A stretch of 64,000 nucleotides of DNA. Origin: Thermoanaerobaculia bacterium (GTDB lineage Bacteria; Acidobacteriota; Thermoanaerobaculia; UBA5066). Position 1 is the stretch's first letter, and each line of letters starts with the position of its first letter. Below, one piece after another: positions 19,282-61,095 of the stretch. Under the pieces are notes generated by a model. It was not told the DNA's origin. It did no database searches and saw only the letters and a program-made list of their open reading frames with translations. The stretch spans positions 65,111 through 129,110 of the forward strand of contig CAVVDA010000006.1 in the NCBI GenBank assembly GCA_963746875.1. The letters are read 5' to 3'. The position numbers and the translations under genes are program-made.

Positions 19282-19369
19282 GCACCGCGCCGTGTTTTTC
19301 GCGGAACCGCCTGCAGCAAGGTCGGGCCGGACAGGAGGCGGAGAATAGGACATACTGCACGGAGACAGC

Positions 19370-21817: not shown

Positions 21818-21923
21818 CGAAGCGTGCGGATTCCCCGGTTCACTTCGCGCAGAACTCGTCGCGCGCGACTAAGCCCTTGAAAAAAGAGGATACTGCTCGA
21901 AGATCGCGTGGGAATCGAGAGGC

Positions 21924-23546: not shown

Positions 23547-24194
23547 TCAGTTCGTCAGCTTGCGATCGGCGGCCCAGCGGACCAGTTCGGCGCGGCTCGA
23601 AAGGCCGAGCTTCCCCAGGATGTTCGCGCGGTGGCTCTCGACGGTGCGGATCGAGAGGTCCAGCTCGTCGGCGATCTGGCGATTCGTGTAGCCGCGCGTG
23701 AGGAGCTTCAGGACGCCGGTCTCGCGCTGCGTGAGGGATTCGTCGTCGCCCTTGCGGGGCTTGGGCGGCGCGGAGCACCTGTTCGCTTCGAGAAGCGCCC
23801 GGGTCATGGAGGAGTGGACGTAGAGCTCGCCGCGGCTCGCGGCCTCGATGGCCGCGAGGAGGTCCGACTCCACCGCGCGCTTCACGACGTAGCCCACGGC
23901 GCCGGCCTTCATCGCCTCGCGGAGGAACGCGGCGTCCTCGTGGACGGTCAGGATGAGGACCTTGGTCGCGGGGAGGTCCGCGTGCAGCTTGCGGGTCACC
24001 TCGATGCCCCCGATGCCCGGCATGGAAAGATCCATGAGCACGATGTCGGGCTTCAGCGCGACCGCGGCGCGATACGCCTCGTCGCTGTCCGCGGCCTCGC
24101 CGACGACCTGATAGTTCGACTCGTCGTTCAGGAGCGCGCGGAGGCCGGCGCGCAGGACGCCGTGATCGTCGGCCACCAGAATTCTAAGCCCCAC
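23547..24194 (-). CDS. NarL/FixJ-family response regulator (REC + LuxR HTH)
   Basis: Intact 215-aa ORF with ILVADDH, DIVLMDLSMPGIGG, and the HTH LTQRETGVLKLLTRGYTNRQIADELDLSIRTVESHRANILGKLG. Confidence 0.9.
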   Translation of the reverse strand: MGLRILVADDHGVLRAGLRALLNDESNYQVVGEAADSDEAYRAAVALKPDIVLMDLSMPGIGGIEVTRKLHADLPATKVLILTVHEDAAFLREAMKAGAVGYVVKRAVESDLLAAIEAASRGELYVHSSMTRALLEANRCSAPPKPRKGDDESLTQRETGVLKLLTRGYTNRQIADELDLSIRTVESHRANILGKLGLSSRAELVRWAADRKLTN

Positions 24195-26107
24195 TGGGAA
24201 CCTCCACGACGAGCGTCGTCCCCGACCCGGGGCTGCTTTCCACGAGGAGGTGGCCGCCGAACATCTCGGCGCGCTCGCGAATCCCGAGGAGGCCGAGCCG
24301 CCCCGACCGGTTCGCGACCTCGACGTCGAAGCCGCGGCCGTCGTCCTCGACGACCAGGATGATCTGCCCGTTCCGCCTTTCCGCGACGAGGCTCACGTTC
24401 TTCGCGTCGGCGTGCCGGGTGGCGTTCGTCAGAGCCTCCTGGGCGATCCGGTAAAGGGCGGTCTCGAGGTCGAAGGACAGGCGCCTCCCTTCGAGACCGA
24501 GCGTCTCGAGCTGGACCGACGGTCCCCCGCTCACGGAGTGCTTCGAGGCGAGCTGGCCGAGAGCCGGGACGAGCCCGAGATGCTCGAGAGCGGCCGGCCG
24601 GAGGTCGGTGGCGAGGCGGTGCAGGCCCTCCTGCACCGCGTCCGCGAGGTGCTTCAGCTCCTTGATACGGAGGACGACGGCCTCGGGCCGTCCGGCCTCG
24701 TTTTCCAGCAGGCGCAGGCCGACCAGCAGGGACGTGAGGAGCTGCCCGGCCTCGTCGTGGAGCTCCAGCGCGACCCGCCGGCGTTCGCCCTCCTGCACGT
24801 CCACGAGCTGGCGCGAGAGAACCTGCAGCCGATGGCGACTGGCGCTCGCGTCCTCGAAGAGGCCCGCGTTCGCGATCGCCACCGAGGCGGGCGAGTAGAG
24901 CGCCTCGACGAGACTGACCTGCTCGGGCGTGTAGAAGTTCGGTTCCGCCTTGACGAGCGTGTACAGGCCGATCGCCTGGCCGCCGGCGAGAAGCGGAACG
25001 CCGACCCAGCTCCGCTCGAACTCGGGTCGAATCTGACCGCCCCACACGGGAAGCGCGTGTGTGTCGGCCACGCAGACGCTCCGCTTCGTGAGGAGCACCT
25101 CGTTCACGGCGCTGTTGGCCGCGGAATCGAAGGTGATGAAGGGCAGGTCGGCGAAGTCGACTCTTCCGGTCGGGCTGAAGACCGCCCGCACCTTCAGGCG
25201 CGACGGGCCCTCGAGGAGCATGATCTTGGCCCGGTCGTACGGCACGAGACGGCCGAGATGGTCGAGCATCGCCGCGAAGACGTCCTCGATGTCGAGCGAG
25301 CGGGTGATCGCGAGGCTCGCGGAGCGCAGGGTGTCGGCCGTCTGCCGGGCTCGCTGCTCGGCCTGGAAAAGGGAGGCGTTGTTCACGGCGATGCCCACCT
25401 GCCGGCCGATGGCGCGAAGCAGCGCGGCCGTGGATGCGTCGAGGGGCCGCGGGGTTCGCCAGACGACGTTCAGGATGGCCCCGGCTCGGTCGCCGATGGG
25501 AAGGAGGACGCTCAGGTGCTGCCGGAACCCCGCCTTCTGAAGGGCGTCGCCCGGCACGCTGAGGCACTCCGCGATCTCCGCACCCGCGGCGGACGGAGGC
25601 TTGGCGCACCAGCCGCGGCAGGTGCCGCAGGAGGGCCGGAGCGCCGGCTCTTCGGCATTCACGAGGGACTCCGGAACGCCGCGCGCGGCAATGAAGCGCG
25701 ACGGCCCCGCCGGTCCCCCTCCGAGCACCTGGACCCAGACGGCGTCGCCCTCGAAGACGGGGATGACGACGTCGATCACGTTGAGGAGAAGGCGATCCAC
25801 GTCCAGCTCGCTCGCGGCCGCCGCCGTGACCGCGTAAAGCGCCTCCAGCTCGCGCGTGCGCCGCGTCAGCGTCCGCTCGACCTGCTGGCGATCCGCGCAT
25901 GAGCCGCATCAGCGGGCGGACGATCAGCACCCAGAGAACGGGAGAGACGAGGGCCACCATCAGCGCGATGTCGAGGAGCGTGGCCGACCAGAAAGGGCGC
26001 GGCTTCAGGATCTCGAGGATCGCCATGACGATCAACTCGGCCACGACGATCACCGCGATGGTCACCAGCATCGTCCGGAGCCGCGTGGCCGGTTTCTCGC
26101 TCGCCAA
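24184..26107 (-). pseudogene. membrane GAF-GAF sensor histidine kinase (HisKA_3/NarX type); one +1 switch near 25883
   Basis: ORF 24184..25800 holds two GAF-like regions, the H-box ELHDEAGQLLTSL, and an HATPase domain (LVVEDDGRGF, GLLGIRERAEMFGG). The two-TM N-terminus (MASEKPATRLRTMLVTIAVIVVAELIV...) is in the adjacent frame from ATG 26107. There is an 11-nt overlap with the regulator. Confidence 0.85.
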
Positions 26108-26255: not shown

Positions 26256-28268
26256 TCACGGGGCGGCCCACACGAAAGCGCCGTCGCCGGTGCGCTGGCC
26301 GGGTGTGGCGCCGTCGTTCAGGACGCCGTAAACGAGGAACGGGCTCGTGCCCGAGGTCCTCACGACGTGCGCATAGCCCTCCGTCACGCCCGGCGCGCTC
26401 GTGGACAGGATGGCGTTGTACTGCGTCCATGCCCGGGCCCCGAGGGAAACTCCGGAGAGCCTCGCCGCGAGCGCACCCGTCGCGCCGTCGTACAGCTCGA
26501 TGTCGAACACGTCCGGCGGGTCACCCGGCTGGCCGAGGTTCGCGAGGGCGAGGTTCGTCCGGGTTTCGGCGTTCTGCTGGAGGCCGAAGAGCCAGAGAGC
26601 GCCGGCGGTCTGCCGCTCCACGACCTGCGCCGTGAAGAAGAGGCCGAACTTCCCGCCGCCTCCCGGAGTCGAGACGCGCGCCCCGAGGACGACGCCCCCG
26701 AGATCGCCGCCGGTCTCCCGGGCGAAGAGATTCCCGGCGAACGTCGGGCCGGCCGGGCCGATTCCCGGCGTTCCCTGCCGGCGCATCCGGTCGACGAAGC
26801 CGGGCAGGATCTGCTGCTCTCCCGGGCCCAGGACGAGCGTCGTGACGGCCGCATGGTCCGGCGTCCCGATCGCGTCCGCGACGTACGTGAGCTGCAGCGT
26901 CTTCGGGGAGGCCGACCAGTTCGTCGCCACGAGCTCGGTCGTGAACGCCGGGGTCTCGACGAGCGCGGGAAGGGCGAGGAGGAGCTGGGTGGCGCCCGTG
27001 CTCGAAGGGACCGCGGGAACGTAGGAGCCGTCGGAGTTCGCCTGGTCGTTGATCACGGCGTAGGCGGCGTAGGGCGCGCTGCCGCTCACCCTCTCGACCC
27101 GGACGTACCCGTTCGCGAGCGAGAGGCCGTTCGAGGCGAGGATGCCGTTGATCTGTGTCCAGCCGCCCGGCGAGAGCGTCACGTCGGGAAGGGTCGTGGC
27201 CGAGGGCGCCGCGGGGTCGCCCGAATAGACCGTGAGCCGGAGCGCCACGTCGCCCGCCGACGCGCTTCCCGCGTTCTGGAGCGCGACGTTCGAGCGGTCC
27301 TGCCCGTTCTGCCTCAGGCCGAAAAGGTACGACGTTCCGGTCAGAGTCGCCGCGGGTGGCAACCCGGAGTAGGCGAGCCCGGCCCGGCCGGTCGGCAGGG
27401 CCGTGGTCGTCCGCGCCGTGAGGCCGATCTCGTGGAGCGGCACGCCCGAGACGAGGACGCGCAGCGTGCCGCCGCGGTCCCCGGAGCTTGGAATCGGGAT
27501 TCCGAGGGAAATCAGGTAGGCGATGGCGTCCGGGACGACGCGCTGCCGCCCCGCGGGGACGAGGTCCGTTCCGACTCCGCCGCCGCCGCCGAAGGCCCCG
27601 GCGTACTCGAAGGTGAGCGTCGCGTCCGACGCCCCCCGGTTCGTCAGCGTCAGCTCCGTCGTGAAGAAAGAGCCGCTTGCTCCGGCGCTGGTCAGGACGA
27701 TCGGCACGAAGAGCGACTCCTCGAGAAGCGCGACGGTCAGGTTGTCGGCCATGAACAGCGCCGAGGATTCCTGGCAGCCCGGGGGGGTGTCGTAATGGAT
27801 CACGACGGAGTTGAAGCCCTGCGCCGCGCCGAGAGTCAGGAGTCCGGTCGGCCAGGTCCCGGGGACGGGAGCGGTCGCGGTGCTCGTCGCCACGAATGCG
27901 CCGTCCATGAACCCGGTGATCCGCATGGTCGCCGACCTGTTGCAGTCGACTTCATCGGGCGCATACATGATCGAGGCGGCCGACAGGGTCCGGGAGAAGC
28001 TGACCGAAAGGTCGGCCGGGGGGGCCCCCAGGTTCGGGTAGAGACACAGGCCGGAGAAGCCGACCGGCGTGAAGCCCAGCACGTCGGCGAGCTGGATCGA
28101 GTAGCTCTGTCCGGGGGCCGTGAACCGCGCCGTGACGCCGCCGGCCGTGAGATCGAGCGGGAGCTGAGCCCTGTACGGCGCGGTGTCGAAGTCGAAGGTC
28201 ACGCTCTGGGCGGACGCCGGACGCGCCATGAGGGTCAAGCCGACGAGGATCAGCAGAATTCGCTTCAT
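26256..28268 (-). CDS. secreted protein of unknown function with two homologous ~240-aa modules
   Basis: ATG 28268 follows AAGGAGG. Signal peptide MKRILLILVGLTLMARPASAQ. The ORF is intact. Internal duplication: FFTTELTLTN ... YLFGLRQNGQDRSNVALQNAG ... GYVRVERVSGSAPYAAYAVINDQANSDGSYV versus AFTTELVATN ... LWLFGLQQNAETRTNLALANLG ... GYAHVVRTSGTSPFLVYGVLNDGATP. Confidence 0.7.
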   Translation of the reverse strand: MKRILLILVGLTLMARPASAQSVTFDFDTAPYRAQLPLDLTAGGVTARFTAPGQSYSIQLADVLGFTPVGFSGLCLYPNLGAPPADLSVSFSRTLSAASIMYAPDEVDCNRSATMRITGFMDGAFVATSTATAPVPGTWPTGLLTLGAAQGFNSVVIHYDTPPGCQESSALFMADNLTVALLEESLFVPIVLTSAGASGSFFTTELTLTNRGASDATLTFEYAGAFGGGGGVGTDLVPAGRQRVVPDAIAYLISLGIPIPSSGDRGGTLRVLVSGVPLHEIGLTARTTTALPTGRAGLAYSGLPPAATLTGTSYLFGLRQNGQDRSNVALQNAGSASAGDVALRLTVYSGDPAAPSATTLPDVTLSPGGWTQINGILASNGLSLANGYVRVERVSGSAPYAAYAVINDQANSDGSYVPAVPSSTGATQLLLALPALVETPAFTTELVATNWSASPKTLQLTYVADAIGTPDHAAVTTLVLGPGEQQILPGFVDRMRRQGTPGIGPAGPTFAGNLFARETGGDLGGVVLGARVSTPGGGGKFGLFFTAQVVERQTAGALWLFGLQQNAETRTNLALANLGQPGDPPDVFDIELYDGATGALAARLSGVSLGARAWTQYNAILSTSAPGVTEGYAHVVRTSGTSPFLVYGVLNDGATPGQRTGDGAFVWAAP

Positions 28269-28340
28269 GAGCGGCCTCCTTGGTTTCTTCGTCCGGCGGC
28301 CTCGCGCCGGACCGGCCCTTAGAAGCACGATTGCTGCCCT

Positions 28341-28375
28341 GGATCGAGAGGAAAAGAAAGGGATCGAGAGGAAAA
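28341..28375. repeat. tandem direct repeat GGATCGAGAGGAAAA x2 (20-bp period) in the leader of the secreted-protein gene
   Basis: 28341..28355 and 28361..28375 are identical 15-mers. On the minus strand they read TTTTCCTCTCGATCC, about 75-105 nt upstream of ATG 28268. Confidence 0.8.
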
Positions 28376-28403
28376 AAAGGGGGGAGGGATTGCTCCCTCC
28401 CCC
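28372..28403 (-). terminator. rho-independent terminator downstream of the large multicopper oxidase
   Basis: Perfect 10-bp stem GGGGGAGGGA (28380..28389) / TCCCTCCCCC (28394..28403) with loop TTGC. On the minus strand it is followed by T7 (28372..28378) and lies 27 nt after the stop at 28430. Confidence 0.8.
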
Positions 28404-28429
28404 AGATCAATACATGTCGTGTCAGTGCC

Positions 28430-31400
28430 TTACGGTACCGTCACCGGGGTCGGAGCCCCGAAGTTGACGTACGCGGAGGGCCCTGCTGCGTTGAAGGACT
28501 GCACGCGGAAGTAGTACGGAACGCCGCGCAGCAGGCCGAGCGTGCCGCCGGGTGTCGTGAACACCGTCACGTTGGCGCCGACAGTGCCCGTGCCCACGCC
28601 GCTCGTGAATGCCGCGTTCCTGTGCCCACTGGACCCTGAATCCGGTCTCGCGTGGTGCTGTTGTCGGTCCACCTGACTGTGAAGATGGCTCTCGTCGCGG
28701 AGAGAACAGCGCCCGTCACGGTGACAGCGCTGGGCGCCGCGGGCACCACGTTGGTGTTGACCAGGGCGGTATTCGAGAATCCGGACGTGGTGGTCTTCGT
28801 GGGGAAGCCCGTAGAAGCCGGGTAGACCTGCGTGTCGCCGACCACGTTCGAGGCGAATACCCTGAAGTAGAACGACGCCGATCGTGTTGCCGATGATGTT
28901 GCTGTAAAGTCGTGACGTTCGGCAGCGACGGTGAAGGTCTGAAGGCCGGTCAGGAAGGCGGCGTCATTCGCCCTCTGGATGGTGAAGCCCGTCTCGTTCA
29001 GGGAGTTGTCCGTCCAGTTCAGGACGATTGCCCTGCCCGAGCCGCTTCCGGTCACGACCGCGCTGAGCCCGGTAGGAGCGTTCGGCGGCGATCGCGAACG
29101 CCGAGCGAGTGCATCATGTCCATCTCTTCGTGGGCGAGGATGTGGCAGTGCCACACGTACTCCCATCCGAAGTTGACGTCGTGGTTCAGGATCTGATTGA
29201 TCGCGATTCCCTGCGGGTCGAGCCAGCCGGCGGGCGGCGGCGGGATCAGCGGGGCGTTGAGAGGCAGCGTCGGGTCGATCAGGCGGACGCTGTTGGGCAC
29301 CTGCGAAGGGGAGCTGCGCCGGGGTGGGAATGATCGGTTTCATCGCGAGGAAAGTGATCTCGAGCGGGTTGATCCTGAACGTGTCCTTCCAGCCCAGCTC
29401 GTTGGCGTCCGGCGGCAGCATGATGCCGTCCTGGCCGACGCGGTTGAGGAGCTGAGCGTTGAACAGGTGGACGTGAATCGGGTGCGTGTCCACGCCGTTG
29501 TGGAAGATCCTCCAGATCTGGGTGCCGTCGCCGAGCGACCCGACGATGGATCCGGACACCGAGCCGGAGATGATGTCGGTGGGCGGGGCTGCATAGCCGT
29601 ACATGGTGAGCAAGCGCGGCTCCGGGCGTCGGGTTGGAGAGCCCGATCATGCCGCTCATGCGGCCGAACTGCGTGTCGTACACGCCGCCCATCTCGTCAT
29701 GGATGCCCTTCGTCTGGAGCGGGATGGTGACAGCAGGCTGCAGAACGCCGGCGCCGTTGATGGGCTGGAAGGTCTTCTGCGTGTCGGCGATCTGCACATA
29801 CTGGGTCGCCGGAGCCGTCGGGAAGATTGTTTCTGTACGCGGAGTTGTAGGCGGCCTGCGGAACGATGATCGGGTCCTGCGTGGCCTCGAAGACGCCGCG
29901 CTTGACGCCGGGGCCCTTGGCGAACACCGCGTTGAGGTTCGCGAGGGTGACGCCGGCAGTCAGCGGCGCCGACGCGGCGATCACCCTGATCTGCATGACC
30001 GTGCGGGTGTTGGGGCCGTAGCCGGGCAGCGTGTCGGGCGCGCCGCCGATGTCGATCTGGCTGCCGTCGCCCGTGTAGTAGTCGTAGACGCTGACGCCCG
30101 CCGGGAACGCCGCGGGAGCGTCGTTGTAGAGGATGAGCGTCTTGCCGGCGAAGGCCGGTGAAGTCGACGATCACGTCGGCCCGCTCGGCCGGTCCGAGGA
30201 GGAGCGAGTGCTGGTTGACGTTGCCGAAGTTGAAGGTCGTCGCGTTGAGGTTCCAGCCGATGGGCTGCTGGGGCACCACGACGGGGGCCGGCAGGAAGCC
30301 GCCCTCGGTGCCGATCTGGATCCAGGCCGGTCCGGCCTTCGCGGCATCGGGGATGCCGCTCGGCGTGAGGGCGTTCTGGTTCGCCGGGTTCACGGTGACC
30401 GGGACCATCGCGACTTCCGTGCAGTTGGCGACAGGTGCGGGTCGACGCAGGGAACGGCCGGCGAAGCCCGATGGGAGCGCCGTGACGCGGCCGTCGTCGG
30501 GGAAGTCTTGTCCGCGGCCACGTAGAGCTGCAGGTTCAAGAACCGGTCATTGGCCGCGTTCAGGACGCGGAACCGGTAGGCCTTGGGCTCGACTTCCATG
30601 TACGGGTAAGCCGTGCCGTTGACGATCGGCGTGTCCATGAAGGCCTCGCCCGGCATGGAGGGGTTCGGGGTGCCCGGCATGAGCGGCGGCTCCCAGGGGG
30701 CGGAGCAGGGGAAGTTGACCGGATCCGGGGGGAACACGTCGCAATTGGGTTCGTGGAAGGGGTTCGGGACCGGCCCGACGTCGATGCACCCCGCCGGGAG
30801 CCCGTTGACGCACGTCGGGGTCGGCGCCACGAACCACGGGCCGTAGTGCCAGCGGCCGAAGGCGTTCGCGCCGGCGAGATCCCACGGATTCTGGGCCGAC
30901 ATGTAGACGTGGGGGTACCAGAGGTCGCCCGCGACGGCGGCCGTCAGTTTTCCGGCGGCATCCCTTGGGCCCGTTCCCCAGTTCCACGTGGGGTCCTGGG
31001 CGAAGATCACGTTCGGGTCCACCCAGGTCTTGTCCTGGATGACGAGGGGAATCCCGATGCCGGGGAGGACCTGGAGCAGGCCGGGGTTCACGCCGGAGAC
31101 GTTCGTTCCGGCGATCATGTCCTGCTCGACCTGGTCGGTGATCACGTAGCCGGCGGCCTCGCCGGCGAAGACGTTGAGGCGCGTGATTCCCATCGCATGG
31201 TCGTGGTAGAACATCAGGCGGGCGCTCTGGGCGTTCGTGTAGTAGAACGTCGCGGCGCCGTCGGGCGGGATCCGGCATGTCGGGCACGTTCCGCGCGCTC
31301 ACGCCCTTCGGGTACGCATGGGCGGAAGCCGGCGCGGGGGTGATCCACTGGTGGGTCGTGCCGTCGCTGATCCACACGGTGTTGTTGCCGTGGAGGTGGA

Positions 31401-32556
31401 TGGTGGCGCGGTTCTGGCTGTACTTGCCGCCGTTGGGGACCCATCCCGGAGCCCATGACCGTCTCGTCCACCGGGAGGACGAGGTCTCCGCCCGACGCCG
31501 GGCGGAAGCAGGTTGTAGAACTTGATGCGGGCGGGCAGGTTGCTGCCGGCCACGATGACAGGCCCCAGGTAATGGGGGAAGTCGAAGGCCGTGACCTGGG
31601 TCGCGGTTCCGGGATAGAGGATCGGGGTGCCGTCGAGATACGTCAGCGGAACCGCGGTGCCGCGCCACGGGACGTTCGTCGGGGTCGTCAACTGCACGTA
31701 GCCCCGCATCCGGGTCGGCGGCAGGTCGGAGTGGAACTTCTCGTAGTACTCCACCAGGCCGATGACGTAAGAGTCGGAGAAGGGGAGGGCTGCCGTGGCG
31801 AAGTTCTCGGCCTTGGCAACCGGGATGTACTGGCCGCTGGTCGAGGCCGGGCCAGGGTCCGAGACGGTTAGGCGTGACGAGGGTGTTCGCGCCGGCTGCC
31901 GTCAGTCCCGGCAGCTTGTCGACGAACTTGCGGATGCCGCCGGTGACGGTCGCGGGATCGAGCGACGCCGTGGCGGCGGCGCCCGTGCCGCAGGCCGGCT
32001 GCGACGGGACACCTGTAACGGATCGATTCGCACCGCAGAGGGTGGGATCGTCCTCGATGAACACGAAGGGAGCCATGTAGCCGGTGCCGCCCAGGCCGCC
32101 GGCGATGGCGGTGATGACACCGGCAGATCAACGGTGAAGCGGAACGAGCCGGCGCCTGATGCCCGCGCCGTAGGCGTCGAGGACGACGCCAAGGGGAGTC
32201 GACGTATCCGCTGCCTCCGGCGTCGAGCGTGACGGCGGCGACGGGTCCCGCGGGGAGCGGGCTGTTGGCCCAGTTAGCGTAGGGACCGAAATAGTGCGGG
32301 GTCCCGCCGGGACCGTCGATGCCCGGGAGGGGCGGGATGGCTGCGCCGGGGGCCCGATGGATGGCCTTGCCCGCGACGCCCGGCTTCAGGCCGAGGGCGC
32401 GCGCGCGCTTCGCCGCTGCCTTCTTCTCCGCGTTCGTGACTTTTCCCTTGAGCACGCCGCCGGCGGCGGGTCTTTGGTCCCCTGCGCGCCTGCCTGACCA
32501 AAGGTCAGGGCGAGCAGTGCCGACAGCACTAGAACCGGGAGCTTCCTACGAATCAT
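28430..32556 (-). pseudogene. large secreted multicopper oxidase with N-terminal extension and two C-terminal FN3 domains; at least 10 frame switches
   Basis: Signal peptide MIRRKLPVLVLSALLALTFGQAGAQG (ATG 32556, preceded by GGAGGAGG). Copper motifs: TIHLHGNNTVWISDG, MFYHDHAMGITRLN, HPIHVHLFNAQLLNR, WHCHILAHEEMDMMH. FN3-like repeats: NWTDNSLNETGFTIQRA ... YFRVFASN, and WTDNST ... YYFRVQSFNAAGPS. Ends TPVTVP, with the stop at 28430. Confidence 0.8.
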
Positions 32557-32782: not shown

Positions 32783-35109
32783 TCAGAAGCGCCATCCGAC
32801 GTTCGCGAAGAACATCCGTCCGGGCTCGGGGACACGGACCCCGGACCGGTACGGGTCGCGCTGGTAGGAGAGAGCTTCGTAGTAGAAGCGGTCGAAGAGG
32901 TTCGCGACCCCGCCCGTCAGGACGAACCCGCCGACGTTCGCTCCCAGCCTGAGGTTGGCGATGCCCCACCCCGCCGTCGGGGTCTCCTCGAGGTCGGTGT
33001 CCACCCGCGTCTGGGCCGCGGTGAAAACTCCCTCGGCTTCCGCCCAGAGGCGGCCCGTGTCGTACCGGAGTCCGAGGCGCCCGCGCAGCGGGGGCATCTC
33101 GGCGAGGTTCGTCGAGTAGATCCCGAGCGCCGGCTGCGCGTCCTGGCTCCCACGCACGTAGGAAAGATCGCCCGAGAGAAAGATCCGGTCCGTCAGGGTC
33201 GCCACCGCGTTCATCTCGCCGCCGAGCAGCGTCGCGTCCACGTTCGCGTACGAGCGGGCGGACGTGTTCATGACGCCGGGTGCGATGTTGACGCGCGTCT
33301 GGTCGTGAAGCGCGACGAAGTCGGTCACCCGGTTCGCGAAGAGGTTCGACGCCCGCGTAGATGCCGGAGCGGCGGATCGAGAGCGCGACGTCGAGCCCCG
33401 TGTTGCGGCTCGGCGAGAGCGCCGGATTCCCGACCCAGTCGTTCCCGGTGCGCTTCACGGCGTAGTAGAGCTCGCTCGGCTCCGCGACGCGCACCTTGGT
33501 TCCGACCCCGCCCGAGATCTCGGTCCCTTCGGAGGGCTGGAACACGAGCCGGACGGAGCCCGACGGGAAGGACGTCCGCGTACGACGTCGAGCGCGTGTC
33601 GTTGTAGGCGTAGTAGAGATTCGTGTTGGCCTTCGCGGGATCGGCTCCGCCGGACGCCCAGTCGACCCGGGCTCCCGCGACGAAGCTCAGCCTGGCCGGA
33701 GAGCGGGTGCTTCCAGTCCGCGTAGAGGCCGGCGATGTCGGCGGTGGCTCCGGGGAGGCCGTACGAGGACATGTACGACCCCATCATGCTCATCTGGCCG
33801 ATCGTCTCCCAGAAGCGGTGGAACGCCTCGACACCGGCCGTGACCTCGGAGAAGAGGGTCGCCTGCAGCTTTCCGCCGAGGGTCCTGGAATTCGCGAGCG
33901 TCCCCATGCTGTAGCCGAGCGGGGCCGTTCCCGCGGACGTCCGGAACTGGTCGGTCATGAAGTGATCCACCTGCGTGTAGTACCCGAGGAGCTTCACGGC
34001 CGAGACGGCGCTTCCACCGCCCGCGATGTCGTAGGCGAGGCTGAGGCGGTCGGAGCGGTCCCACGGGCTGTCCATCTTCAGGTAGGGATAGAAGACCTGG
34101 TTCGCCTCCTGATGCGTCCACGCGACTTCCGCCGCGTGGCCCGCGAGCGGAGCGACGCGCAGCTTTCCCCACGCCGTTCCGACCTTGAAGGCGGCCGAGT
34201 CCACCTCCGACGGCTTGTAGTTCGTGAGCTCGGTGAAGCGCTTCCCCGAGCCGTCCACGTACGCGTCCGAGGAGCGCCACGAGAACCCCGCGAGCGCCGA
34301 GACCGTCTCGCCGCCGAACGAGACCGACGCCGCCGGGTTGAGGTAGCCCGCGGAGCCCGCCGCGAGGTTCGCCGTGGCATGCCAGCCCGCGTCGGGCTGC
34401 CGCGTCACGATGTTCACGGTTCCGCCGAGGCCGCCCTCGTTCTTCACGTCGAAGGGGCCCTTCCCGACCTCGATCCGGTCGACCTCGGCGAAGTCGAGCG
34501 TGGAACGAGGGCGGGTCCATGTGGCTCGGGCAGGCGCCGTAGATTCGCTGGCCGTCGATCAGGACGTTCAGGTTGTCCGACTGGAAGCCGCGCACGACGA
34601 CCTCGTTCGCGATGCCTCCCTTCCGGAGCTTCCAGACGCCGGGCGTTCCGGCGAGCGCTTCGCCGACGTCGCGCGCGGGGCTCTCGCGGATCTCCGCCGC
34701 CTCCACGCTGTCGCGGGGCGAGTCGCCGACGACCGTGACGGACTCACGGACGGTCGAGACGGCGAGCGCGAGGGTGACTTCCTTCGACTCGCCGGCCGCG
34801 AGGCGGAAGGGGGGAAGCGCCGTCGGCGAAAAGCCGGTCGCCTCCGCGACCAGGACGTACGTGCCGGGCGCGAGGCCTCGCGCGCGAAAGACTCCGCGCT
34901 CGCCGGCGGCCACGCGCAGGGCGCGGGCTCCGTCGGACGGAGTCACGGTGACGACGGATCCGGGCAGGCCGGTGCCGTCCACGGAGACGACCGCTCCGGT
35001 GATGGACGCGGTCGAGGTCTGGGCGAGCGCCGGGAGCGCACACGATGAGAAGAGGAAGAAGGACGAGCGCCGCGACGAGGCCGGGCGCCGAGTTCATTCG
35101 GAATCGCAT
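32783..35109 (-). pseudogene. TonB-dependent outer-membrane receptor, OprC/NosA-like copper type, with CarboxypepD_reg-like N-domain; at least 5 frame switches
   Basis: Signal peptide MRFRMNSAPGLVAALVLLPLLI, then a CarboxypepD_reg-like domain (GSVVTVTPSDG ... GTYVLVAEATGF). Plug domain: GIANEVVVRGFQSDNLNVLIDGQRIYGACPSHMDPP. Barrel fragments in ORFs 33455..34447 and 32783..33328, ending FANVGWRF. CPSHM is at 34518..34532 and HFM at 33956..33964. Confidence 0.8.
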
Positions 35110-35213
35110 CGAAAAACCCTCCATGAGATCGATGTGGAAGACGAGACTGCGGCCGCGGATCGGATTGCCGGGATTTGCATCCTCGGCGGCGAGTCCGCGG
35201 GCGAAGAGGCTCG

Positions 35214-35584
35214 TCAGATCTCGGGCGGAGGGGTCTCGGGCGGAAGCCGGCTGGAAAGGGCGCGATCGGGCGCGATCGGGCCCCCGATACGGGACCGGGC
35301 CGGCGCGGGAAGCGTCGGCGTCCCGGCGGGAAGCGGCGCTGCTATTCCCGTCGCCGGCGCGGAGCCGGGCGGCAGGGGAGCGTTCACGGAGTCATTGCAT
35401 CCGCAGCCGCGAGTCGGAAGGGCACTGGCATTCCGCCCCGGCGCACGGGGCAGCACACGCAGAGCATTCGCCCGCCACAGGAGCTGCCGGCCGGGAAGGC
35501 ACCCGTGATGACGGAGGCGAGGAAAACAAAAGCCGCCGCGAGCACCGTCGCGTGTGTTCCGGAGGGGCGTCTCGGACCGACCAT
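35214..35584 (-). pseudogene. candidate small secreted/anchored Cys-rich, Pro-rich protein (frame uncertain)
   Basis: ATG 35584: MVGPRRPSGTHATVLAAAFVFLASVITGAFPAGSSC. The next ~100 nt encode Cys clusters in all three frames (CGGRMLCVCCP / GECSACAAPCAGAECQCP / GCGCND). A GC3-rich Pro-rich frame (NAPLPPGSAPATGIAAPLPAGTPTLPAP ... PPETPPPEI) then runs to the stop at 35214, about 100 nt upstream of the receptor start. Confidence 0.3.
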
Positions 35585-35801
35585 GGCTCTCGGAGAAATA
35601 TCGGGCCGTCCAGTGCTCAAGAAAAGCGTGGAAAATACGGGCTGTCTCCGCGCTTTACACGGACCCGGAAACTGTTCAGAGACCGTATGTTCTGCGGTTG
35701 ATTATCCCCTCTTCGACAATCCAAATTGACCCCTTAAGAGAGTTGCCACGTGTTGGCGAATTACTGGGGCGGTGAATTCACCTGCCCGGAGGAGGCTTGA
35801 A

Positions 35802-38103
35802 ATGCTGAATCGACGTGACCTGATCAAGACCGGCCTTGGAGCAGGCGCTGGCCTTGCCCTCGGGAGGTGGGGCAAGTGGGGAAGCGCTAACGCCGCGTTC
35901 TTCAACCAGAGCCCCAACATTCCGCTCTTCAAGACCGCGCTCCGCGGCGTGGGCCCGGGGGGAATTCCGGTGGCGGTCCCGGGCTTCCTCGGGGGCTTCA
36001 CGAAGGCGCCCGTGACCGGCGTGTCGCATTACGAGATCGGCATCATCCAGTTCCAGGATCAGATCTGCCCTCCCGAAAGCGGTCTCGGCCCGACGAAGCT
36101 CTGGGGCTACGCCCCGGCAAAAGGGCTGGGCGGGTACATCAAGCCGACGCACCTGAGCGGCCTGATCGTCGGGAAGGGTCGCTCGCCTGGCGTCCCAGGA
36201 CAGCGGCGCAGCCGATCCAGATCAGCTTCCAGAACCTGCTCTTCGTCAACAAGCACATCCTGCCCGTCGACACGGACCATCCCGGGCGCGGAGCAGGCGA
36301 TCAACCGGACGGCCGTCCACCTGCACGGCGGCCTCGTCCCCTGGATCAGCGACGGCGGCCCCTTCGACTGGTTCGACCCGTACGGGCGTCACGGCGCGAG
36401 CTTCCTGAACAACAAGGTCCTGAATCCGCTCGCCCTTCCCGGCTCCGCCGAGTACTACTACCCGCTGAACCAGAGCGCCCGGTTCATGTGGTACCACGAC
36501 CACGCCGTCGGCATCACGCGGCTGAACGCCTATGCCGGAATCGCCTCCGGCATGCTGATCCGGGACACCTTCGAGGCGGGCCTGATCAACAAGGGCCTGC
36601 CCAACTACGTCGAGGCCGGCGGCAACGAGATCCCGCTCGTCATTCAGGACAAGATCTTCGTCGGCACGAGCCACATTCACAACTCCGACCCGACCTGGCC
36701 GGGCCCGACGGCGCCCGGCAGCCTCTGGTACGCGCACGTCTACGATCCGGACGCGGTGGGAGCTGTCGCCCGGAGGCCTGACGCCTTCCGGATCCGTCCT
36801 GCATCCCCGAGTTCTTCGGCGACACGATGCTGGTCAACGGCACCGTCTTCCCGCAGGCCACCGTCCAGGCGCGCCGCTACCGCCTGCGGCTTCCTCAACG
36901 CCTGCAACGCCCGGTTCCTGAACCTGCAGCTCTACGTGGCCGACGGCAGCCCGAACGGGATCACGCTGGATCCCCACACGGCAATCCGACGAACGACGCC
37001 TTTCGTCAACGCCGCCACGGGCGACTCGTCCTTCCTCCAGATCGGCACCGAGGGGGGCTTCCTCGCGCACCCGGTGAAGGTCCCGTGCAACCAGCCGCTG
37101 ATCGTGCCTCTCGACAGCCCGATCGGAATCCGGTCAGCCGACCCGTCGAAGGTCAGCAAGTCGCTCCTCGTGGCGCCGGCGGAGCGGCCCGACGTCATCG
37201 TCGACTTCAGCACGTTATGCCGGGCAGAGCATCATCCTCTACAACGACGCGCCCGCCCCGTTCCCGGGTGGAGACGACCGGTGACGACTACTTCCCGGGC
37301 CTTGCGAACGACGGCGGCAACCCGGTCAACGGCTCACGACGCGGACGGCTTCGGCCCCAACACCCGGGTCCTCATGCGGTTCAACGTGGTCGCGGCGTCA
37401 GGCGCCGCCGACTGACCTGCGCATCGACACCGCCCGACGGACCTGTCAAGCCGGCATCGATCCGTTCCTGGTCCCCTGGGGCATGACGACGCAGCTGCCT
37501 CACTCCGGGGTCACCGCGCGCTTCCTGAGCCTGAACGAGTACTTCGACGAGTACGGACGGCTCATCCAGATCCTCGGCAATGCCGCAGCGCCGTTCGGCT
37601 CGCCCTATGAAGGAACGCGCCACGTACCTCGGCTATCCGCCGTACGGCAACCCGACGTGGGGGCTACCGAGGAGTCGGTCCACTACGGCGACACGGAAGT
37701 GTGGGAGATCTACAACACCACCGGCGACGTCCACCCGATGCACTTCCACCTCGTGAACGTCCAGGTCATCAACCGGCAGTTGTTCGACGTGACGGCGCAT
37801 TCTCCGACTTCGCTTCACGCGGACCCGTCATCCCGCCCGAGCCGAACGAGCTGGGGTGGAAGGAGACGGTGCCGATGTATCCGGGCACGGTCACCCGGGT
37901 CATCATGAAGTTCGACCTGCCGCTCGATCGTCGACAGCAAGGGGAAGACCGTCAACACGAAGGAGATCCGCGGCTTCCAGCTGCCCATCACGAACGGGCA
38001 GCCGCCCGTCAGCCCGCGGACCGGCGGCGACGAGTACGTCTGGCACTGCCACATCCTGGAGCACGAAGAGCACGACATGATGCACGCGCTCGTCGTCAAA
38101 TAA
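35802..38103 (+). pseudogene. Tat-exported three-domain multicopper oxidase (CotA/bilirubin-oxidase-like); at least 6 frame switches
   Basis: GGAGGAGG precedes ATG 35802. Twin-arginine signal MLNRRDLIKTGLGAGAGLALG. Copper motifs: TAVHLHGGLVPWISDG, FMWYHDHAVGITRLN, HPMHFHLVNVQVINR, YVWHCHILEHEEHDMMHALVVK, then the stop at 38101..38103. Confidence 0.85.
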
Positions 38104-38247
38104 CGGAATCCGGAATCAAGAGATCCGGTGAGACTCCGATTGGCCCCGGCGCTTCGGCGCCGGGGCCATTCTTCTTCTCGGTGCCTGAGCAGCCTGCTTC
38201 ATGGCGTTCGAGCAGCGGTTTTCCGGCATAAGGTGAGGAGGCGGAAT

Positions 38248-39690
38248 ATGAAGCGGCCTGTCGTCATCACTGCCGTCCTCGCGAGCGCCCTCTTTCTCTT
38301 CCTCGCGGGAGTCTGGGCCGGCCACCGCTCGCCGGGCGGGGCCGCCGCAGCCGCGAGCGGGAAGAAAGTCCTCTACTGGGTGGACCCGATGCACCCGGCG
38401 TACAAGGCCGACAAGCCCGGCATCGCCCCCGACTGCGGCATGCAGCTCGAGCCCGTCTACGCGGACGGGAGCACGGGGGACGGCAAGGCCCTTCCGGCCG
38501 GCGCCGCGAAGGTGACGTCCGAGCGCCGGCAGATGATCGGGGTGAAGGTCGGGACGGCCGTCGAGGCCGGCGGGACGCAGAGCATCCGGACGCTCGGGCG
38601 CGTGGCCGCGGACGAGACGCGGGTCTACCGCGTGACCGCGGCGGGCGACGGCTGGATCCGCGAGGTCCTGCCCGTGACGGCCGGCAGCCTCGTGAAGAAG
38701 GACCAGATCCTGGCGTCCTTCTACGCCCGCGAGTTCCTCGCGGCCCAGCAGAGCTACCTCTACGCGCTGCGCGCGCTCAACCGCTTCGAGGCCGACAAGA
38801 CGGAGACGCCCGACCAGATCAGGCAGACGAACGCCAACATCCAGTCGGCGAAGGAGAGCCTCGAGAACCTCGGCATGAGCGAGCGGCAGGTCGAGGAGAT
38901 CGCGAAGAGCCGCGAGCTGGCCAAGAAGATCTACATCGTCGCCCCGGCCGACGGGTTCGTTCTGGCGCGAAACATCAACATCGGGCAGCGGTTCGAGAAG
39001 GGGTTCGAGCTCTACCGCCTCGCCGACCTGTCGCGCGTCTGGATCCTCGCCGACCTCTTCGAGCGGGAAGGGCAGGACATCAGGCCCGGACAGGTCGCGA
39101 AGGTGACGCTTCCCTACCAGGGGAAGACCTTCGCCGCGAAGGTCAGCGACATCCCTCCGCAGTTCGACCCGGCCACGCGGACGCTGAAGGTGCGCCTCGA
39201 GACGGACAACCCGGGTTTCGCCCTGCGCCCCGAGATGTTCGTCGACGTGGAGTTCGCCGTCGCTTATCCGCCCACGCTGACCGTTCCGATGGATGCCGTC
39301 CTCGACTCGGGGCTTCGGCAGACCGTCTACGTCGAGACGGAGGCGGGCGTCTTCGAGCCGCGGAGGGTCGAGACCGGCCGGAGCTTCGGCGACAACGTGG
39401 AGATCGTGAAGGGGCTCATGCCGGGGGAGAAGATCGTCCTCTCCGGCAACTTCCTCATCGACTCCGAGAGCCGGATGAAGGCGGCCGTGGCGGGCGTGCG
39501 CGGCGACTCGTCGAAGGACCCGGTCTGCGGAATGGACGTGGACGAGACGAAGGCCCGCGCCGCGGGAAAGACGAGCCAGCACGGCGGCGTCTCGTACTTC
39601 TTCTGCTCGGAGGCGTGCAAGAAGGAGTTCGACGCGAATCCCGCGAAGCACGCGGGCGCCCTGAAGGACGGCGGACCGGGACATGGTTGA
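38248..39690 (+). CDS. cusB: RND efflux periplasmic adaptor, CusB-like, with C-terminal YHS-type metal-binding domain
   Basis: GGAGG precedes ATG 38248; TM anchor present. N-terminal metal-binding motif [28 protein letters not shown], HlyD-type body, and C-terminal [45 protein letters not shown]. The ORF is intact. Confidence 0.85.
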
Positions 39691-42600
39691 GAAGGTCATC
39701 GACTTCTCGGTCAAGAACAAGCTCGTCGTCTTCATCCTCGTCGCCGCCGCGTCGATCTGGGGTGCCTGGTCGCTGAAGCAGGTGCCGCTCGACGCGATTC
39801 CCGACCTCTCCGACACGCAGGTCATCATCTACTCGAAGTGGGACCGGAGCCCGGACCTCGTCGAGGACCAGGTCACGTACCCCATCGTGACGGCGCTGCT
39901 CGGCGCGCCGAAGGTGAAGACGGTGCGGGGCTTCTCGGATTTCGGCTACTCGTACGTCTACGTCATCTTCGAGGACGGGACCGACATCTACTGGGCCCGG
40001 TCGCGGACGCTGGAGTATCTCTCCGGCGTCCTGCCGGGGCTCCCCGCCGGAGTGAAGACCGAGCTCGGTCCCGACGCCACCGGCCTCGGCTGGATCTTCC
40101 AGTACGTGCTCGTCGACACCTCGGGAAAGCACAGCCTCGCGGATCTGCGCTCCTACCAGGACTGGACTCTGCGCTACCACCTCCGGTCGGTGCCCGGGCG
40201 TGGCCGAGGTGGCGCCCATCGGCGGCTTCGGCCTGCAGTACCAGGTGAACGTCGACCCGAACCGGCTGCAGGCCTACGGCATCCCGATCGGCCGCGTCGT
40301 GGAGGCGGTGCGCGGCGGCAACTCGGAGACGGGAGGCCGCCTCATCGAGTTCGGCGGCACCGAGTACATGGTGCGCGGGCGCGGGCTACGCGAAGTCGCT
40401 CCAGGACTTCGAGAACATCGTCCTCTCCGCGTCGGAGACGGGGACGCCCATCCGGATCCGGGACGTCGGGCAGGTCACGATCGGGCCGGACCTTCGGCGG
40501 GGGGTCACGGATCTCGACGGCGAGGGCGAGGCCGTCTCCGGCATCGTCGTCATGCGGCAAGGGCAGAACGCCCTCGAGGTGATCGACCGCGTGAAGGCGA
40601 AGATCAAGGAGATCGAGCCGGGGCTTCCCGAGGGGACCAGGATCGTCCCGATCTACGACCGCTCGGAGCTGATCCACCGGTCGATCGACAACCTCCGGAC
40701 GACGCTGATCGAGGTGATCGTCACCGTCGTGCTCGTGATCCTCCTCTTCCTCTGGCACATCCCGAGCGCCCTCATTCCCGTGATCACCATTCCCGTCGCG
40801 GTCCTCATCTCGTTCATCCCCTTCCGCGCGATGGGGCTCACGGCGAACATCATGTCCCTCGGCGGCATCGCCATCGCGATCGGCGCCCTGGTGGACGCCG
40901 CGATCGTCGTGGTCGAGCAGACGCACAAGAAGCTGGAGGAGTGGGAGAAGAACGGCCGCCCCGGCAGCTATCAGGACGTCGTCGTGTCGGCGGTGAAGCA
41001 GGTCGCCGGCCCGAGCTTCTTCGCGCTTCTCGTCATCGCGGTCTCGTTCCTGCCGGTGCTGACGCTCGAGGCGCAGGAGGGGCGCCTCTTCAAGCCGCTC
41101 GCCTACACGAAGAACCTCTCGATGATCGTGGCGGCGGTCCTCGCCATCACCCTCGACCCGGCCCTCCGCCTCCTCCTGACGCACGTGAGAACCTTCGGCT
41201 TCCGCCCCGTGTGGCTCTGCAGGCTGGCGAACGCCGCGCTGGTGGGCAAGATCCACTCCGAGGAGAAACACCCGGTCAGCCGGTTCCTCATCCGGCTCTA
41301 CGAGCCCGTCGTGAAATGGTCGCTCCGGTGGAAGTGGGCGGTCATCGGCGGCGCGGTCTTTCTCCTCGTCGCCACGGTGCCGGTCTTCCGGCGGCTCGGC
41401 TCGGAGTTCATGCCGCCGCTCGACGAGGGGACGCTGTTCTACATGCCCTCGACGATGCCGGGCATCTCGATCACCGAAGCGCAGAAGCTGCTGCAGGTCA
41501 CCGACCGCGTCATCAAGCAGTTCCCCGAGGTGGACCGCGTCCTCGGGAAGGCGGGCCGCGCGGAGACCTCGACCGACCCGGCTCCGCTCTCGATGCTCGA
41601 GACGGTCATCACCCTGAAGCCCGCGTCGGAGTGGCGAACGGTGCCGACGTGGTACTCCGGATGGGCGCCGGAGTGGCTGAAGGGAATCCTGCGGCGCGCC
41701 TGGCCGGACCGGATCTCCAAGGAAGAGCTCGTCGACCAGCTCAACGAGGCGCTCAAGATCCCCGGCGTTTCGAACGCCTGGACGATGCCGATCCGGGCCC
41801 GGATCGACATGCTGACCACCGGGATCAGGACGCCGGTGGGGCTGAAGATCTCCGGGGCCGACCTGAAGGTGATCGAGGAGATCGGCGCCCAGGTCGAGGC
41901 GATCCTTCCCTCCGTGCCGGGGACGCGCAGCGTCTTCGCGGAACGGACGGGAGGCGGCTTCTTCCTCGATTTCGAGTGGAATCGCGACGAGCTGGCGCGC
42001 TACGGGCTGAGCGTCGAGGAGGCGCAGCAGCTCGTCCAGAACGCCATCGGGGGCGAGAACGTCACGACGACCATCGAGGGGCGGGCGCGGTACCCGGTCA
42101 ACGTGCGCTACATGCGCGATTTCCGGGCCGACCGGAACGCCCTCGAGCGCGTGCTGGTGCCGGTCGCGGGCGGGCAGAAGCACATTCCGCTCGGGCAGCT
42201 CGCGACCATGCGCGCGGCGAGCGGCCCCTCGATGATCCGGAACGAGAACGGGCTCCTGACCGGCTACGTCTACGTCGACCTTTCCGGGCGCGATCCCGCC
42301 GGCTACGTGGACGAGGCGGCGCAGCTTCTCCGCGAGAAGGTGAAGCTGCCGGCCGGCTACGCCCTCTCCTGGAGCGGCCAGTGGGAGGCCATGCAGCGCG
42401 TGCGCGAGCGGCTGGCGGTCCTCGTCCCCGTGACGCTCTTCCTCGTCTTTCTCCTCCTCTACATGAACACCCGCTCCGTCGTGAAGACGGGCATCGTCCT
42501 CCTCGCGGTTCCCTTCTCGGCGATCGGCGCCGTCTGGTTCCTCTGGCTGCTCGGCTACAACATGAGCGTCGGCGTCTGGGTCGGGCTCATCGCGCTGCTC

Positions 42601-42975
42601 GGGGTCGACGCGGAGACCGGCGTCTTCATGCTCCTCTACCTCGACCTCTCCTACGAGCAGGCGCGGAAGGAAGGGCGGCTGACCTCGCTCGCGGACCTGC
42701 GCGCCGCCATCGTCCAGGGCGCGGCGAAGCGGATCCGGCCGAAGTTCATGACGGTGGCGACGACCTTCCTCGGGCTCGTCCCGATCATGTGGGCCACGGG
42801 CACCGGATCCGACGTCATGAAGCGGATCGCGGCCCCGATGATCGGCGGCATCTTCACGTCGTTCCTCCTCGAGCTCGTCGTCTACCCGGCCATCTACGAG
42901 ATCTGGCGGTGGAACTTCGAGCTGAAGCGGAAGGTGGAACCCGTCGCGGACGCGCTCGCGACAGCGCCCGCCTGA
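39683..42975 (+). pseudogene. cusA: heavy-metal RND efflux pump, CusA type; two +1 frame switches (about 40198 and 40386)
   Basis: 8-nt overlap with cusB. N-terminus [22 protein letters not shown]. The TM4 signature GGIAIAIGALVDAAIVVVEQ is CusA-like rather than CzcA-like. The long intact part is ORF 40552..42975. Both switches are G-run expansions (cccgGGcgtg, cgcgGGctac). Confidence 0.9.
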
Positions 42976-59473: not shown

Positions 59474-59602
59474 GGCGGTCTCTCCTGGGACTCAATCTAG
59501 GGAGGAAACGCGGATAAAGCAAGGAAGAGGCCACAATCCACAGGCATTCGTCTGCTGTTAACTTCTTTTTTTAGAATGAATTAGAGAAGATTTCCAGAAG
59601 AC

Positions 59603-61058: not shown

Positions 61059-61095
61059 GTCGCGAGCTTAGCAGGAGCGAAATCCTCGGTCGGCT

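Follow-up and report, generated by a model that had tools for sequence, protein, structure and literature searches.

Introduction

Does a TonB-dependent receptor of the Acidobacteriota import copper in the manner of OprC? The question is raised by a gene on the minus strand of a 64,000-nucleotide stretch of Thermoanaerobaculia bacterium DNA (assembly GCA_963746875.1, contig CAVVDA010000006.1, positions 65,111 to 129,110), the whole of which is called the window here and to which all coordinates refer unless another sequence is named. On comparison of its sequence with known receptors, the gene most probably encodes an OprC-like TonB-dependent copper receptor, a distant relative of OprC that belongs to a distinct clade. 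To our knowledge, OprC provides the only structurally defined route of ionic copper import in Gram-negative bacteria, and it has so far been described as a proteobacterial protein.

OprC (PA3790, Pseudomonas aeruginosa) and NosA (P. stutzeri) are TonB-dependent importers of ionic copper, represented by PDB entries 6FOK, 6FOM, 6Z8Q and others and by the family model TIGR01778. The copper site of OprC is a tetrahedral CxxxM-HxM arrangement, with Cys143 and Met147 in the plug and His323 and Met325 contributed by the wall of the barrel (PMC8610252). A preliminary description of the window had given this site correctly, including a separation of about 180 residues between its halves (180 in our count), and had proposed that the window gene encodes a copper-importing rather than a siderophore receptor. 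The columns shared with OprC, the ranking of sequence and fold matches, TIGR01778 as the top family model and the copper-gene neighbours all speak for that proposal.

Architecture of the receptor gene

The gene and the elements within it that bear on the question are listed below, with residue numbers taken from the stitched 777-residue protein.

32783..35109, minus strand: OprC-like TonB-dependent transporter gene (ATG at 35109, stop at 32785..32783), from open reading frame (ORF) fragments and three-frame translation
34764..35006, minus strand: CarboxypepD_reg-like N-terminal extension of Ig fold, residues 36-116 (Pfam PF13620, 52.2 bits; cut-off 32.3)
34725..34745, minus strand: Ton box ESVTVVG, residues 123-129, aligned to 68-PSVVTGV-75 of OprC
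about 34421..34718, minus strand: Plug domain, residues ~132-230 (PF07715, 66.3 bits), spanning an insertion at ~34497, with approximate coordinates
34518..34532, minus strand: CPSHM, the plug half of the putative metal site, TGCCCGAGCCACATG after reverse complement (C194/M198, corresponding to OprC C143/M147)
33956..33964, minus strand: HFM, the barrel-wall half of the putative metal site, CACTTCATG after reverse complement (H383/M385, corresponding to OprC H323/M325)

The corrected receptor has about 776 residues; the stitched version carries one surplus residue at the first junction, which lies in the signal peptide. The parts follow one another as signal peptide, CarboxypepD_reg-like extension, Ton box, plug (with Cys194 and Met198) and 22-strand barrel (with His383 and Met385). 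The extension, which the preliminary description had already assigned as CarboxypepD_reg-like, forms a block with a predicted local distance difference test (pLDDT) score of 85-96 in the AlphaFold model. That OprC lacks this domain, as had also been said, agrees with the alignment, which begins at query residue 122, i.e. at the OprC Ton box, for which 68-PSVVTGV-75 has been given (PMC8610252).

Both motifs were re-read by reverse-complementing the DNA and stand where they had first been placed, within the previously quoted minus-strand peptides GQRIYGACPSHMDPP (34509..34553) and YYTQVDHFMTDQF (33944..33982). The HFM residues lie at the end of a predicted strand (369-386) in the AlphaFold model. 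In the frame-corrected protein the two half-sites are 189 residues apart, as the earlier estimate of about 189 codons had it, compared with 180 in OprC. The motif residues survive frame correction, none of the five single-base insertions discussed below touching a motif codon.

Short patterns of this kind arise readily. Six-frame translations of the window give chance rates of about 0.21 for CxxxM and 0.14 for HxM per 777 residues, so the bare patterns are weak evidence. On sequence grounds, it is their position in the alignment and their conservation that give them evidential weight.

Similarity to OprC

OprC variants are the six best matches in a sequence search of the PDB (E = 5e-35, 124 bits, query 122-777 against chain 68-723), and the next protein scores 41 bits. 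phmmer and MAFFT each put C194, M198, H383 and M385 in the columns of OprC C143, M147, H323 and M325, so that both motifs occupy homologous positions. An AlphaFold2 model of the receptor, built from 115 sequences, has a mean pLDDT of 91 and a predicted template-modelling (pTM) score of 0.89. When it was compared with the PDB by Foldseek, the top 28 matches were all OprC chains (E from 1e-45 to 3e-40, target-normalised TM-score 0.83-0.86, 23-25% identity), followed by Cir, PhuR, ChuA and ZnuD from E = 7e-32.

The best NCBIfam model for the receptor is TIGR01778, 'TonB-dependent copper receptor' (192.3 bits, profile positions 11-637 of 637), with a haem model at 110 bits and a siderophore model at 93 as runners-up. 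Beyond the four putative ligands, M346 and M402 align with OprC M286 and M343, which are two of the three Ag2 ligands of the methionine track, and M616 aligns with M559 of the M558/M559 pair.

Conservation and distribution

A database search returned 622 receptor relatives at E <= 1e-10, the best 120 of which (49-92% identity, about 760-780 residues) were aligned. Nearly all of these homologues combine CarboxypepD_reg, Plug and barrel, and the few that are named belong to Thermoanaerobaculia, Holophagales or 'Acidobacteria'. In a MAFFT alignment that includes OprC, the Cys, Pro and Met of CPSHM are unchanged in 119 of the 120, the exception being one fragment with a gap, and the His and Met of HFM are unchanged in all 120. 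M346 and M402 are invariant and M616 nearly so. At the 'lid' position (Asn145 in OprC), 100 of the 120 have Asn.

When GTDB was scanned with a single genome for each species, 170 confirmed relatives emerged. The best 80 loci were kept, and 82 related loci of 40-91% identity were compared. Acidobacteriota of many classes account for the best 80 of the 170 together with three Aquificota, and the C, P, M, H and M residues as well as M402 are present at 82 of the 82 loci. In the Aquificota the protein begins with the Ton box and lacks the N-terminal extension, so the CarboxypepD_reg domain is a lineage-specific accessory. We found no paper linking OprC-type receptors to Acidobacteria in the literature searched.

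These alignments also bear on whether the two motifs are a coincidence in an ordinary siderophore or haem receptor. The brevity of the patterns leaves room for such an accident, and public sources name the relatives 'iron complex outermembrane receptor protein' or 'BtuB'. Those names, however, are automatic generic labels. The motifs occupy precisely the columns of OprC and do not vary among 200 diverged sequences, and OprC leads the matches to this protein by far, whether searched by sequence or by fold. We consider coincidence to be effectively refuted in favour of a site homologous to that of OprC.

Proposed mechanism and substrate

By homology with OprC, the four residues would form one tetrahedral site, made of a thiolate, two thioethers and an imidazole, at the interface of plug and barrel. 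It is the alignment and the fold match that suggest the convergence of the four side chains. Such a site would capture ionic Cu(I)/Cu(II) directly, with no chelator, and M346, M402 and M616 would be part of the approach track of the metal. Binding would then expose the Ton box, and TonB-driven remodelling of the plug would release copper to the periplasm. As aligned and modelled, the receptor resembles OprC in its ligand set, its Ton box, its fold and part of the methionine track. From the homology, the invariance of the four residues, the fold and the gene context we infer copper binding, the direction of transport and regulation.

Several observations weigh against this reading. The TIGR01778 score of 192.3 bits falls far short of the equivalog cut-off of 472.45, and identity to OprC is just 23-25% (about 24%). 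The methionine track is partial, the positions of OprC M339 and M341 being Leu and Tyr in the receptor, and the gene is frame-broken in this assembly. Linkage to multicopper oxidases is limited to the five closest loci (L001-L005) and linkage to cusBA to about 13 of the 82, so gene context is support for this lineage only; moreover, neighbouring efflux genes fit copper homeostasis generally and do not specify import. Because the equivalog threshold is missed and an extra domain is present, we file the receptor in an OprC-like clade and not as an OprC orthologue. The receptor has another Met-rich loop, GQMSMMGSYMS, at about residues 436-446.

The low identity and the sub-threshold family score would also fit a substrate other than free ionic copper, either another soft metal (Ag, Cd or Zn) or copper in chelated or metallophore-bound form, the kind of substrate proposed for CrtA and MbnT. 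OprC has other extracellular loops and, for the most part, another methionine track, ZnuD binds zinc at a nearby position (PMC8610252), and copper receptors that take chelates exist (PMC12914433). On the other hand, the full Cys/Met/His/Met set is invariant in the family, and in OprC this set is highly copper-specific, zinc coelution not having been seen (PMC8610252). CrtA-type receptors have no conserved Cys or Met, and the distance, in sequence as in fold, is clearly greater for ZnuD and for haem and siderophore receptors. We therefore regard a different substrate as improbable and retain ionic copper as the likely one.

Frame breaks in the receptor gene

The receptor gene contains five +1 single-base insertions, at approximately 35042, 34497, 33697, 33572 and 33349, which divide it into six frame segments. 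In three-frame translation, the coding signal passes through frames 0, 1, 2, 0, 1 and 2 from the ATG at 35109 to the stop at 32783. If these breaks were real frameshifts, the receptor would be an inactivated pseudogene, the adjoining oxidases would be decaying, and nothing functional would be made. The numbers lend this some appeal, with five breaks in 2.3 kb of receptor, two in the small ORF upstream and many in both oxidase genes, and with frame switches much denser between 28.4 and 38.1 kb than in most of the window.

The nature of the breaks, however, argues for assembly error. Each amounts to a single base that the window has and that L001 (91.5% DNA identity) and L002 (83.5%), the two closest relatives, both lack, and every break is one inserted base against two or three relatives. 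With the five bases removed, the frame is open to the stop with zero in-frame stops. Both relatives come from ENA assembly ERZ25039490, and the contig of L002 appears a second time as contig_20883 within the Acidobacteriota metagenome-assembled genome MFD02199.bin.2.63 (L004).

The substitution pattern points the same way and indicates purifying selection. The ratio of nonsynonymous to synonymous substitution rates (dN/dS) is 0.255 for the window compared with L001; for L001 compared with L002 it is 0.29. With L002 as outgroup, the window branch carries 38 nonsynonymous and 50 synonymous changes (0.76) and the L001 branch 32 and 39 (0.82; Fisher p = 0.87), so that the window lineage shows no relaxed constraint. 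In addition, L001 and L002, which are long-read contigs, have different private indels of their own in the receptor gene and the upstream small ORF, and the cusA homologue is fragmented in L002.

A phase plot of GC content at third codon positions (GC3) shows that frame switches are not spread evenly; they are denser at 28.4-38.1 kb and in a few other stretches (~46400..48500 and 59100..63900), and other window genes of 2.4-3.6 kb stay in one frame. One gene outside the copper region, that of DNA polymerase III alpha (45129..~48500, plus strand), is split over at least two frames, with the PHP domain and DNA_pol3_alpha positions 2-85 in one ORF and positions 101-185 with the finger domain in another, which also speaks for assembly error. 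Such clusters may reflect a locally poor long-read consensus, e.g. from low coverage or strain variation. Inactivation of the receptor is accordingly an unlikely account, and long-read assembly indels are much the likelier cause of its frame breaks.

A small cysteine-rich ORF upstream of the receptor

Two features lie immediately upstream of the receptor start.

35214..35584, minus strand: leader ORF of about 120 residues with two +1 insertions, delimited by DNA alignment with the intact, publicly annotated copy of locus L003 (= P0122)
35110..35232, minus strand: last Pro codons of the leader and the 104-nucleotide intergenic region (RNA fold with a minimum free energy of -59.2 kcal/mol, z = -3.7)

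In the window leader, an export signal and the Cys cluster CGGRMLCVCC..C.C..RCGC are followed by some 50 spacer residues and by a C-terminal ETPPPEI, after which comes the stop. A copy is found directly upstream of the receptor, on the same strand, in at least 33 related Acidobacteriota loci in addition to the window, at a median gap of 58 nucleotides based on estimated receptor starts; examples are L003 7474-7842, L009 31-438 and L070 7500-7940. The ORF is seen at L085 and L086 as well. The copies at these 33 loci share a basic and hydrophobic export signal, 6-12 Cys with CC and CxC, a poorly conserved spacer, and a C terminus of the form [D/E]P..P(T)PPP(R/K) that leaves 0-11 residues before the stop. 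The Pro motif follows the last Cys of the cluster at a median distance of 50 residues (interquartile range 48-53), i.e. the spacer varies in sequence while its length is steady.

Public gene callers predicted these ORFs independently, and 21 database proteins have invariant Cys columns and an equally invariant terminal PPP. An exhaustive profile search of 1.84 billion representative proteins gave 48 leader clusters at 50% identity. For 46 of them the representative carries a terminal (P)TPPP[RK] no more than 11 residues before the stop, and all 48 have a hydrophobic N-terminal segment followed by the Cys cluster, with a median spacing of 52 and a commonest spacing of 50-55. Next to two distant representatives, the following gene opens with a signal peptide and a CarboxypepD_reg-like N-terminus.

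The arrangement recalls two known copper-responsive leaders. CruR of Bordetella pertussis, a DUF2946 protein with an export signal, a CxxC motif, a 45-residue spacing and a C-terminal RAPP, heads a copper-repressed operon for a TonB-dependent transporter (PMC9426467). CutF of Rhodobacter capsulatus has a signal peptide, CxxxC, the same 45-residue spacing and a proline-rich C terminus. The multicopper oxidase downstream is under its control by way of a stem-loop in which the Shine-Dalgarno sequence is hidden (PMC9973294), and which, in the CutF-like scheme, the paused ribosome opens. By analogy, we view the small ORF of the window as a candidate copper-sensing leader peptide of the CutF/CruR kind.

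Membership in DUF2946 itself was considered and rejected, and the functional analogy was kept. PF11162 (DUF2946) gave zero matches among ten diverse leaders with E-values listed to 10 (HMMER filters drop most matches above about 0.1), none of the 21 database relatives carries a precomputed Pfam domain, and hhalign of the leader family against a taxonomically narrow alignment of 33 enterobacterial DUF2946 sequences returned a probability of 1.7%.

As a hypothesis, the leader probably couples receptor expression to copper via ribosome pausing at the terminal PTPPP(R/K)-stop. We tentatively extend this to the family, in which Acidobacteriota OprC-type receptors might be governed by an undescribed group of exported Cys-rich leaders, a convergent or extremely diverged counterpart of CutF/CruR; this broader proposal is possible, and we hold it with less than even confidence. 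Under it, a spacing of about 52 residues would place the Cys cluster just outside the ribosome and translocon while the ribosome stands on the prolines, and copper binding by the nascent chain would tune pausing and in turn set the expression of the copper importer and the downstream multicopper oxidase.

Signals in the RNA were compared with this scheme. The sequence CCCUCCG (35232..35226), which covers the T-P-P-P codons, is predicted to pair with the receptor Shine-Dalgarno sequence UGGAGGG (35123..35117). Such pairing is predicted at 16 of 29 loci versus 10, 11 and 10.2 in three controls, counts that are not independent as the loci are mutually related. At 16/29 against about 10/29, the masking stem is unproven, and the comparison is not decisive as to whether the last leader codons mask the Shine-Dalgarno sequence family-wide.

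Codon choice in the leader tails is also biased. Of the 170 Pro codons in the tails, 41 are the rare CCT, as against 84 of 1,198 in receptor genes. As the first codon of a PP pair it occurs in 31 of 65 cases versus 10 of 70 (p = 3e-5, with counts that are not independent among related loci), and CCTCC, the anti-Shine-Dalgarno sequence, is present in the last 12 leader codons at 25 of 29 loci, themselves related, versus 9% of random windows. The CCT bias fits an anti-Shine-Dalgarno role and, equally, rare-codon pausing. The C-over-G skew of the intergenic region, taken as a proxy for a Rho site, was uninformative, since the Pro-rich ORF itself has the same skew.

At one Aquificaceae locus (L069, 2807-3256), the gene upstream of the receptor is not a Cys-rich leader. 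It encodes a secreted protein of 149 residues with an N-terminal HHHDHDHEH and a CPHC motif, which is possibly a different metal-binding partner.

Genomic neighbourhood

The following genes flank the receptor and its leader.

28430..32556, minus strand: multicopper oxidase 1, about 1,370 residues with many frameshifts, directly downstream of the receptor (three-frame translation)
35772..38103, plus strand: multicopper oxidase 2, divergent, with a twin-arginine translocation (TAT) signal and many frameshifts; motifs HLHG (VHLHG), WYHDH, HPMHFH and HCHILEHEEHDMM
38128..39690, plus strand: CusB-type membrane-fusion protein with HMBD and YHS metal-binding domains
39683..42975, plus strand: CusA/CzcA-family heavy-metal RND pump (ACR_tran 575 bits; TIGR00914 797 bits, cut-off 701), its frame broken close to the 5' end
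26259..28406, minus strand: ORF of 716 residues with strong coding signal and no Pfam or NCBIfam match
23547..25908, minus strand: two-component system in which a GAF/HisKA_3 histidine kinase is paired with a NarL-type (GerE) response regulator

Multicopper oxidase 1 has a Sec-type signal, the motifs HLHG (IHLHG), YHDH (FYHDH), HPIHVH and HCHILAHEEMDMM, and a C-terminal repeat extension; stitched, it scores 33.9 bits with Pfam Cu-oxidase_2 (cut-off 20.4). It probably shares an operon with the receptor. Multicopper oxidase 2, likewise stitched, scores 49 bits against the same cut-off, and its best NCBIfam matches, PhsA and CueO, are both under cut-off. Each oxidase thus carries a Pfam Cu-oxidase domain and all four copper-ligand motifs (HxHG, HxH, HxxHxH and HCHxxxHxxxxM), and with Cu-oxidase_2 above threshold for both neighbours the preliminary description was right to call the receptor flanked by copper enzymes. 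Oxidase linkage as a trait of the whole receptor family is ruled out by its restriction to L001-L005.

The C-terminal extension of oxidase 1 (28430..~29300, minus strand) contains two repeats of the pattern W-T-D-N-S..(E/D)-G-F-x-(I/V)-Q, possibly serving surface attachment. A fibronectin type III assignment was not called for these repeats, Pfam having given no domain there.

We picture the locus as a copper island in which one strand carries the leader ORF together with the receptor and the large secreted oxidase 1, with the TAT-exported oxidase and cusBA on the divergent side. Judged from this context, the receptor probably serves to acquire copper for exported cuproenzymes, with efflux as the counterbalance. 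A sigma-70 promoter scan of 32.4-36.0 kb found none, and terminator-like sites there are at chance level; Rfam at gathering thresholds gave zero matches in the whole window.

The GAF/HisKA_3 and NarL-type pair lies directly upstream of the receptor in L001-L004. The 716-residue ORF is kept beside the copper genes in L001 (84% identity) and L003 (55%). A PAS-GGDEF-EAL protein and a phosphate-porin-like (Porin_O_P) gene adjoin the two-component system of the window (19349..23057, plus strand), and GGDEF proteins accompany the locus in L001-L004 too. In loci of the Holophagales/Thermoanaerobaculia type (L009-L025 and others), a GltD-like FeS/FAD oxidoreductase of about 650 residues follows the receptor in 15 loci and a cytochrome b-like protein of about 446 residues is present in 11 of those, both identified by eye from the sequences; multicopper oxidases are not downstream there. 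These neighbours hint at a link to a respiratory or redox module.

Significance

A complete and invariant Cys/Met/His/Met site in a large and deeply diverged clade, which was met nearly always in Acidobacteriota and a few times in Aquificota, would extend the OprC mechanism to major soil phyla. Hundreds of these receptors appear to be mislabelled publicly as iron or B12 receptors, and the four-residue signature offers a simple route to their re-annotation. Conservation within the family suggests that the essential OprC design comprises the four ligands and the counterparts of M286 and M343, whereas the N-terminal architecture and the other methionine-track positions seem dispensable.

The novelty of the receptor is modest, and the leader-peptide family is the most interesting lead. 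Its 48 clusters match no Pfam family and would, if our reading is true, be previously undescribed. With its arrest-like motif, which is very short and invariant, the linked leader ORF allows copper-responsive translational control to be tested outside Proteobacteria.

Comparison with known systems

The receptor and OprC have in common a plug and 22-strand barrel, the position of the Ton box and the alignment columns of CxxxM and HxM, and the methionine-track residues M286, M343 and M558/M559 of OprC have conserved equivalents in the receptor. They differ in the CarboxypepD_reg domain that the receptor adds before the Ton box, in the M338-M343 methionine cluster, most of which is absent from the receptor, and in the 'lid' residue Asn145, which is Ser in the window receptor although Asn in most of the family. 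The hosts are Acidobacteriota and Aquificota, not Proteobacteria.

An N-terminal CarboxypepD_reg extension is common in SusC-like and other TonB-dependent transporters of Bacteroidota and Acidobacteriota. SusC-like transporters, as the window receptor, carry this Ig-like domain before the Ton box; their substrates, however, are glycans, vitamins and similar compounds, they have no Cys/Met/His/Met site, and the window locus has no SusD-like partner.

A further distant relative of OprC, G2EC70 of Bizionia argentinensis (Bacteroidota), keeps CxxxM-HxM at 21.8% identity and was noted bioinformatically (PMC11213822), so the occurrence of this site beyond Proteobacteria is already on record. That report mentions the one protein in passing, with neither a family analysis nor a leader ORF.

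The leader resembles CutF and CruR in its small size (about 120-170 residues), N-terminal export signal, Cys metal-binding motif and proline-rich, arrest-like motif near the stop. Like them, it is first in a copper-gene operon, followed by a TonB-dependent transporter, as with CruR, and further down by a multicopper oxidase, as with CutF. It falls within the rule-based 'CutF-like' definition of PMC9973294, i.e. fewer than about 150-170 residues, an N-terminal signal, a Cys/His motif and PP in the last 15 residues; Acidobacteriota are unnamed in the main text of that survey. Its Cys-Pro spacing is conserved, yet about 5-8 residues longer than the 45 of CutF and CruR; it has a multi-Cys cluster (CC, CxC) instead of a single CxxC or CxxxC, and its terminal motif is PTPPP(R/K), mostly 0-8 residues ahead of the stop, not the RAPP of CruR.

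The closest parallel in gene order is found on Klebsiella plasmids, where, as in the window, a small Cys-containing ORF lies upstream of the receptor; there it is a DUF2946 gene, of which the window leader is no detectable member. On the K. pneumoniae plasmid NZ_CP015501.1 (L083 4379-6944), this gene (CGYC ... RAPPAAFLSAN) stands 82 nucleotides upstream of a gene annotated as TonB-dependent copper receptor, whose product shares 59% identity with OprC. The spacer of the Klebsiella protein is hydrophobic, whereas that of our leader is hydrophilic and of low complexity. The plasmid arrangement implies that OprC-type receptors, and not only those of the CrtA type, are headed by CruR-like ORFs in Enterobacteria.

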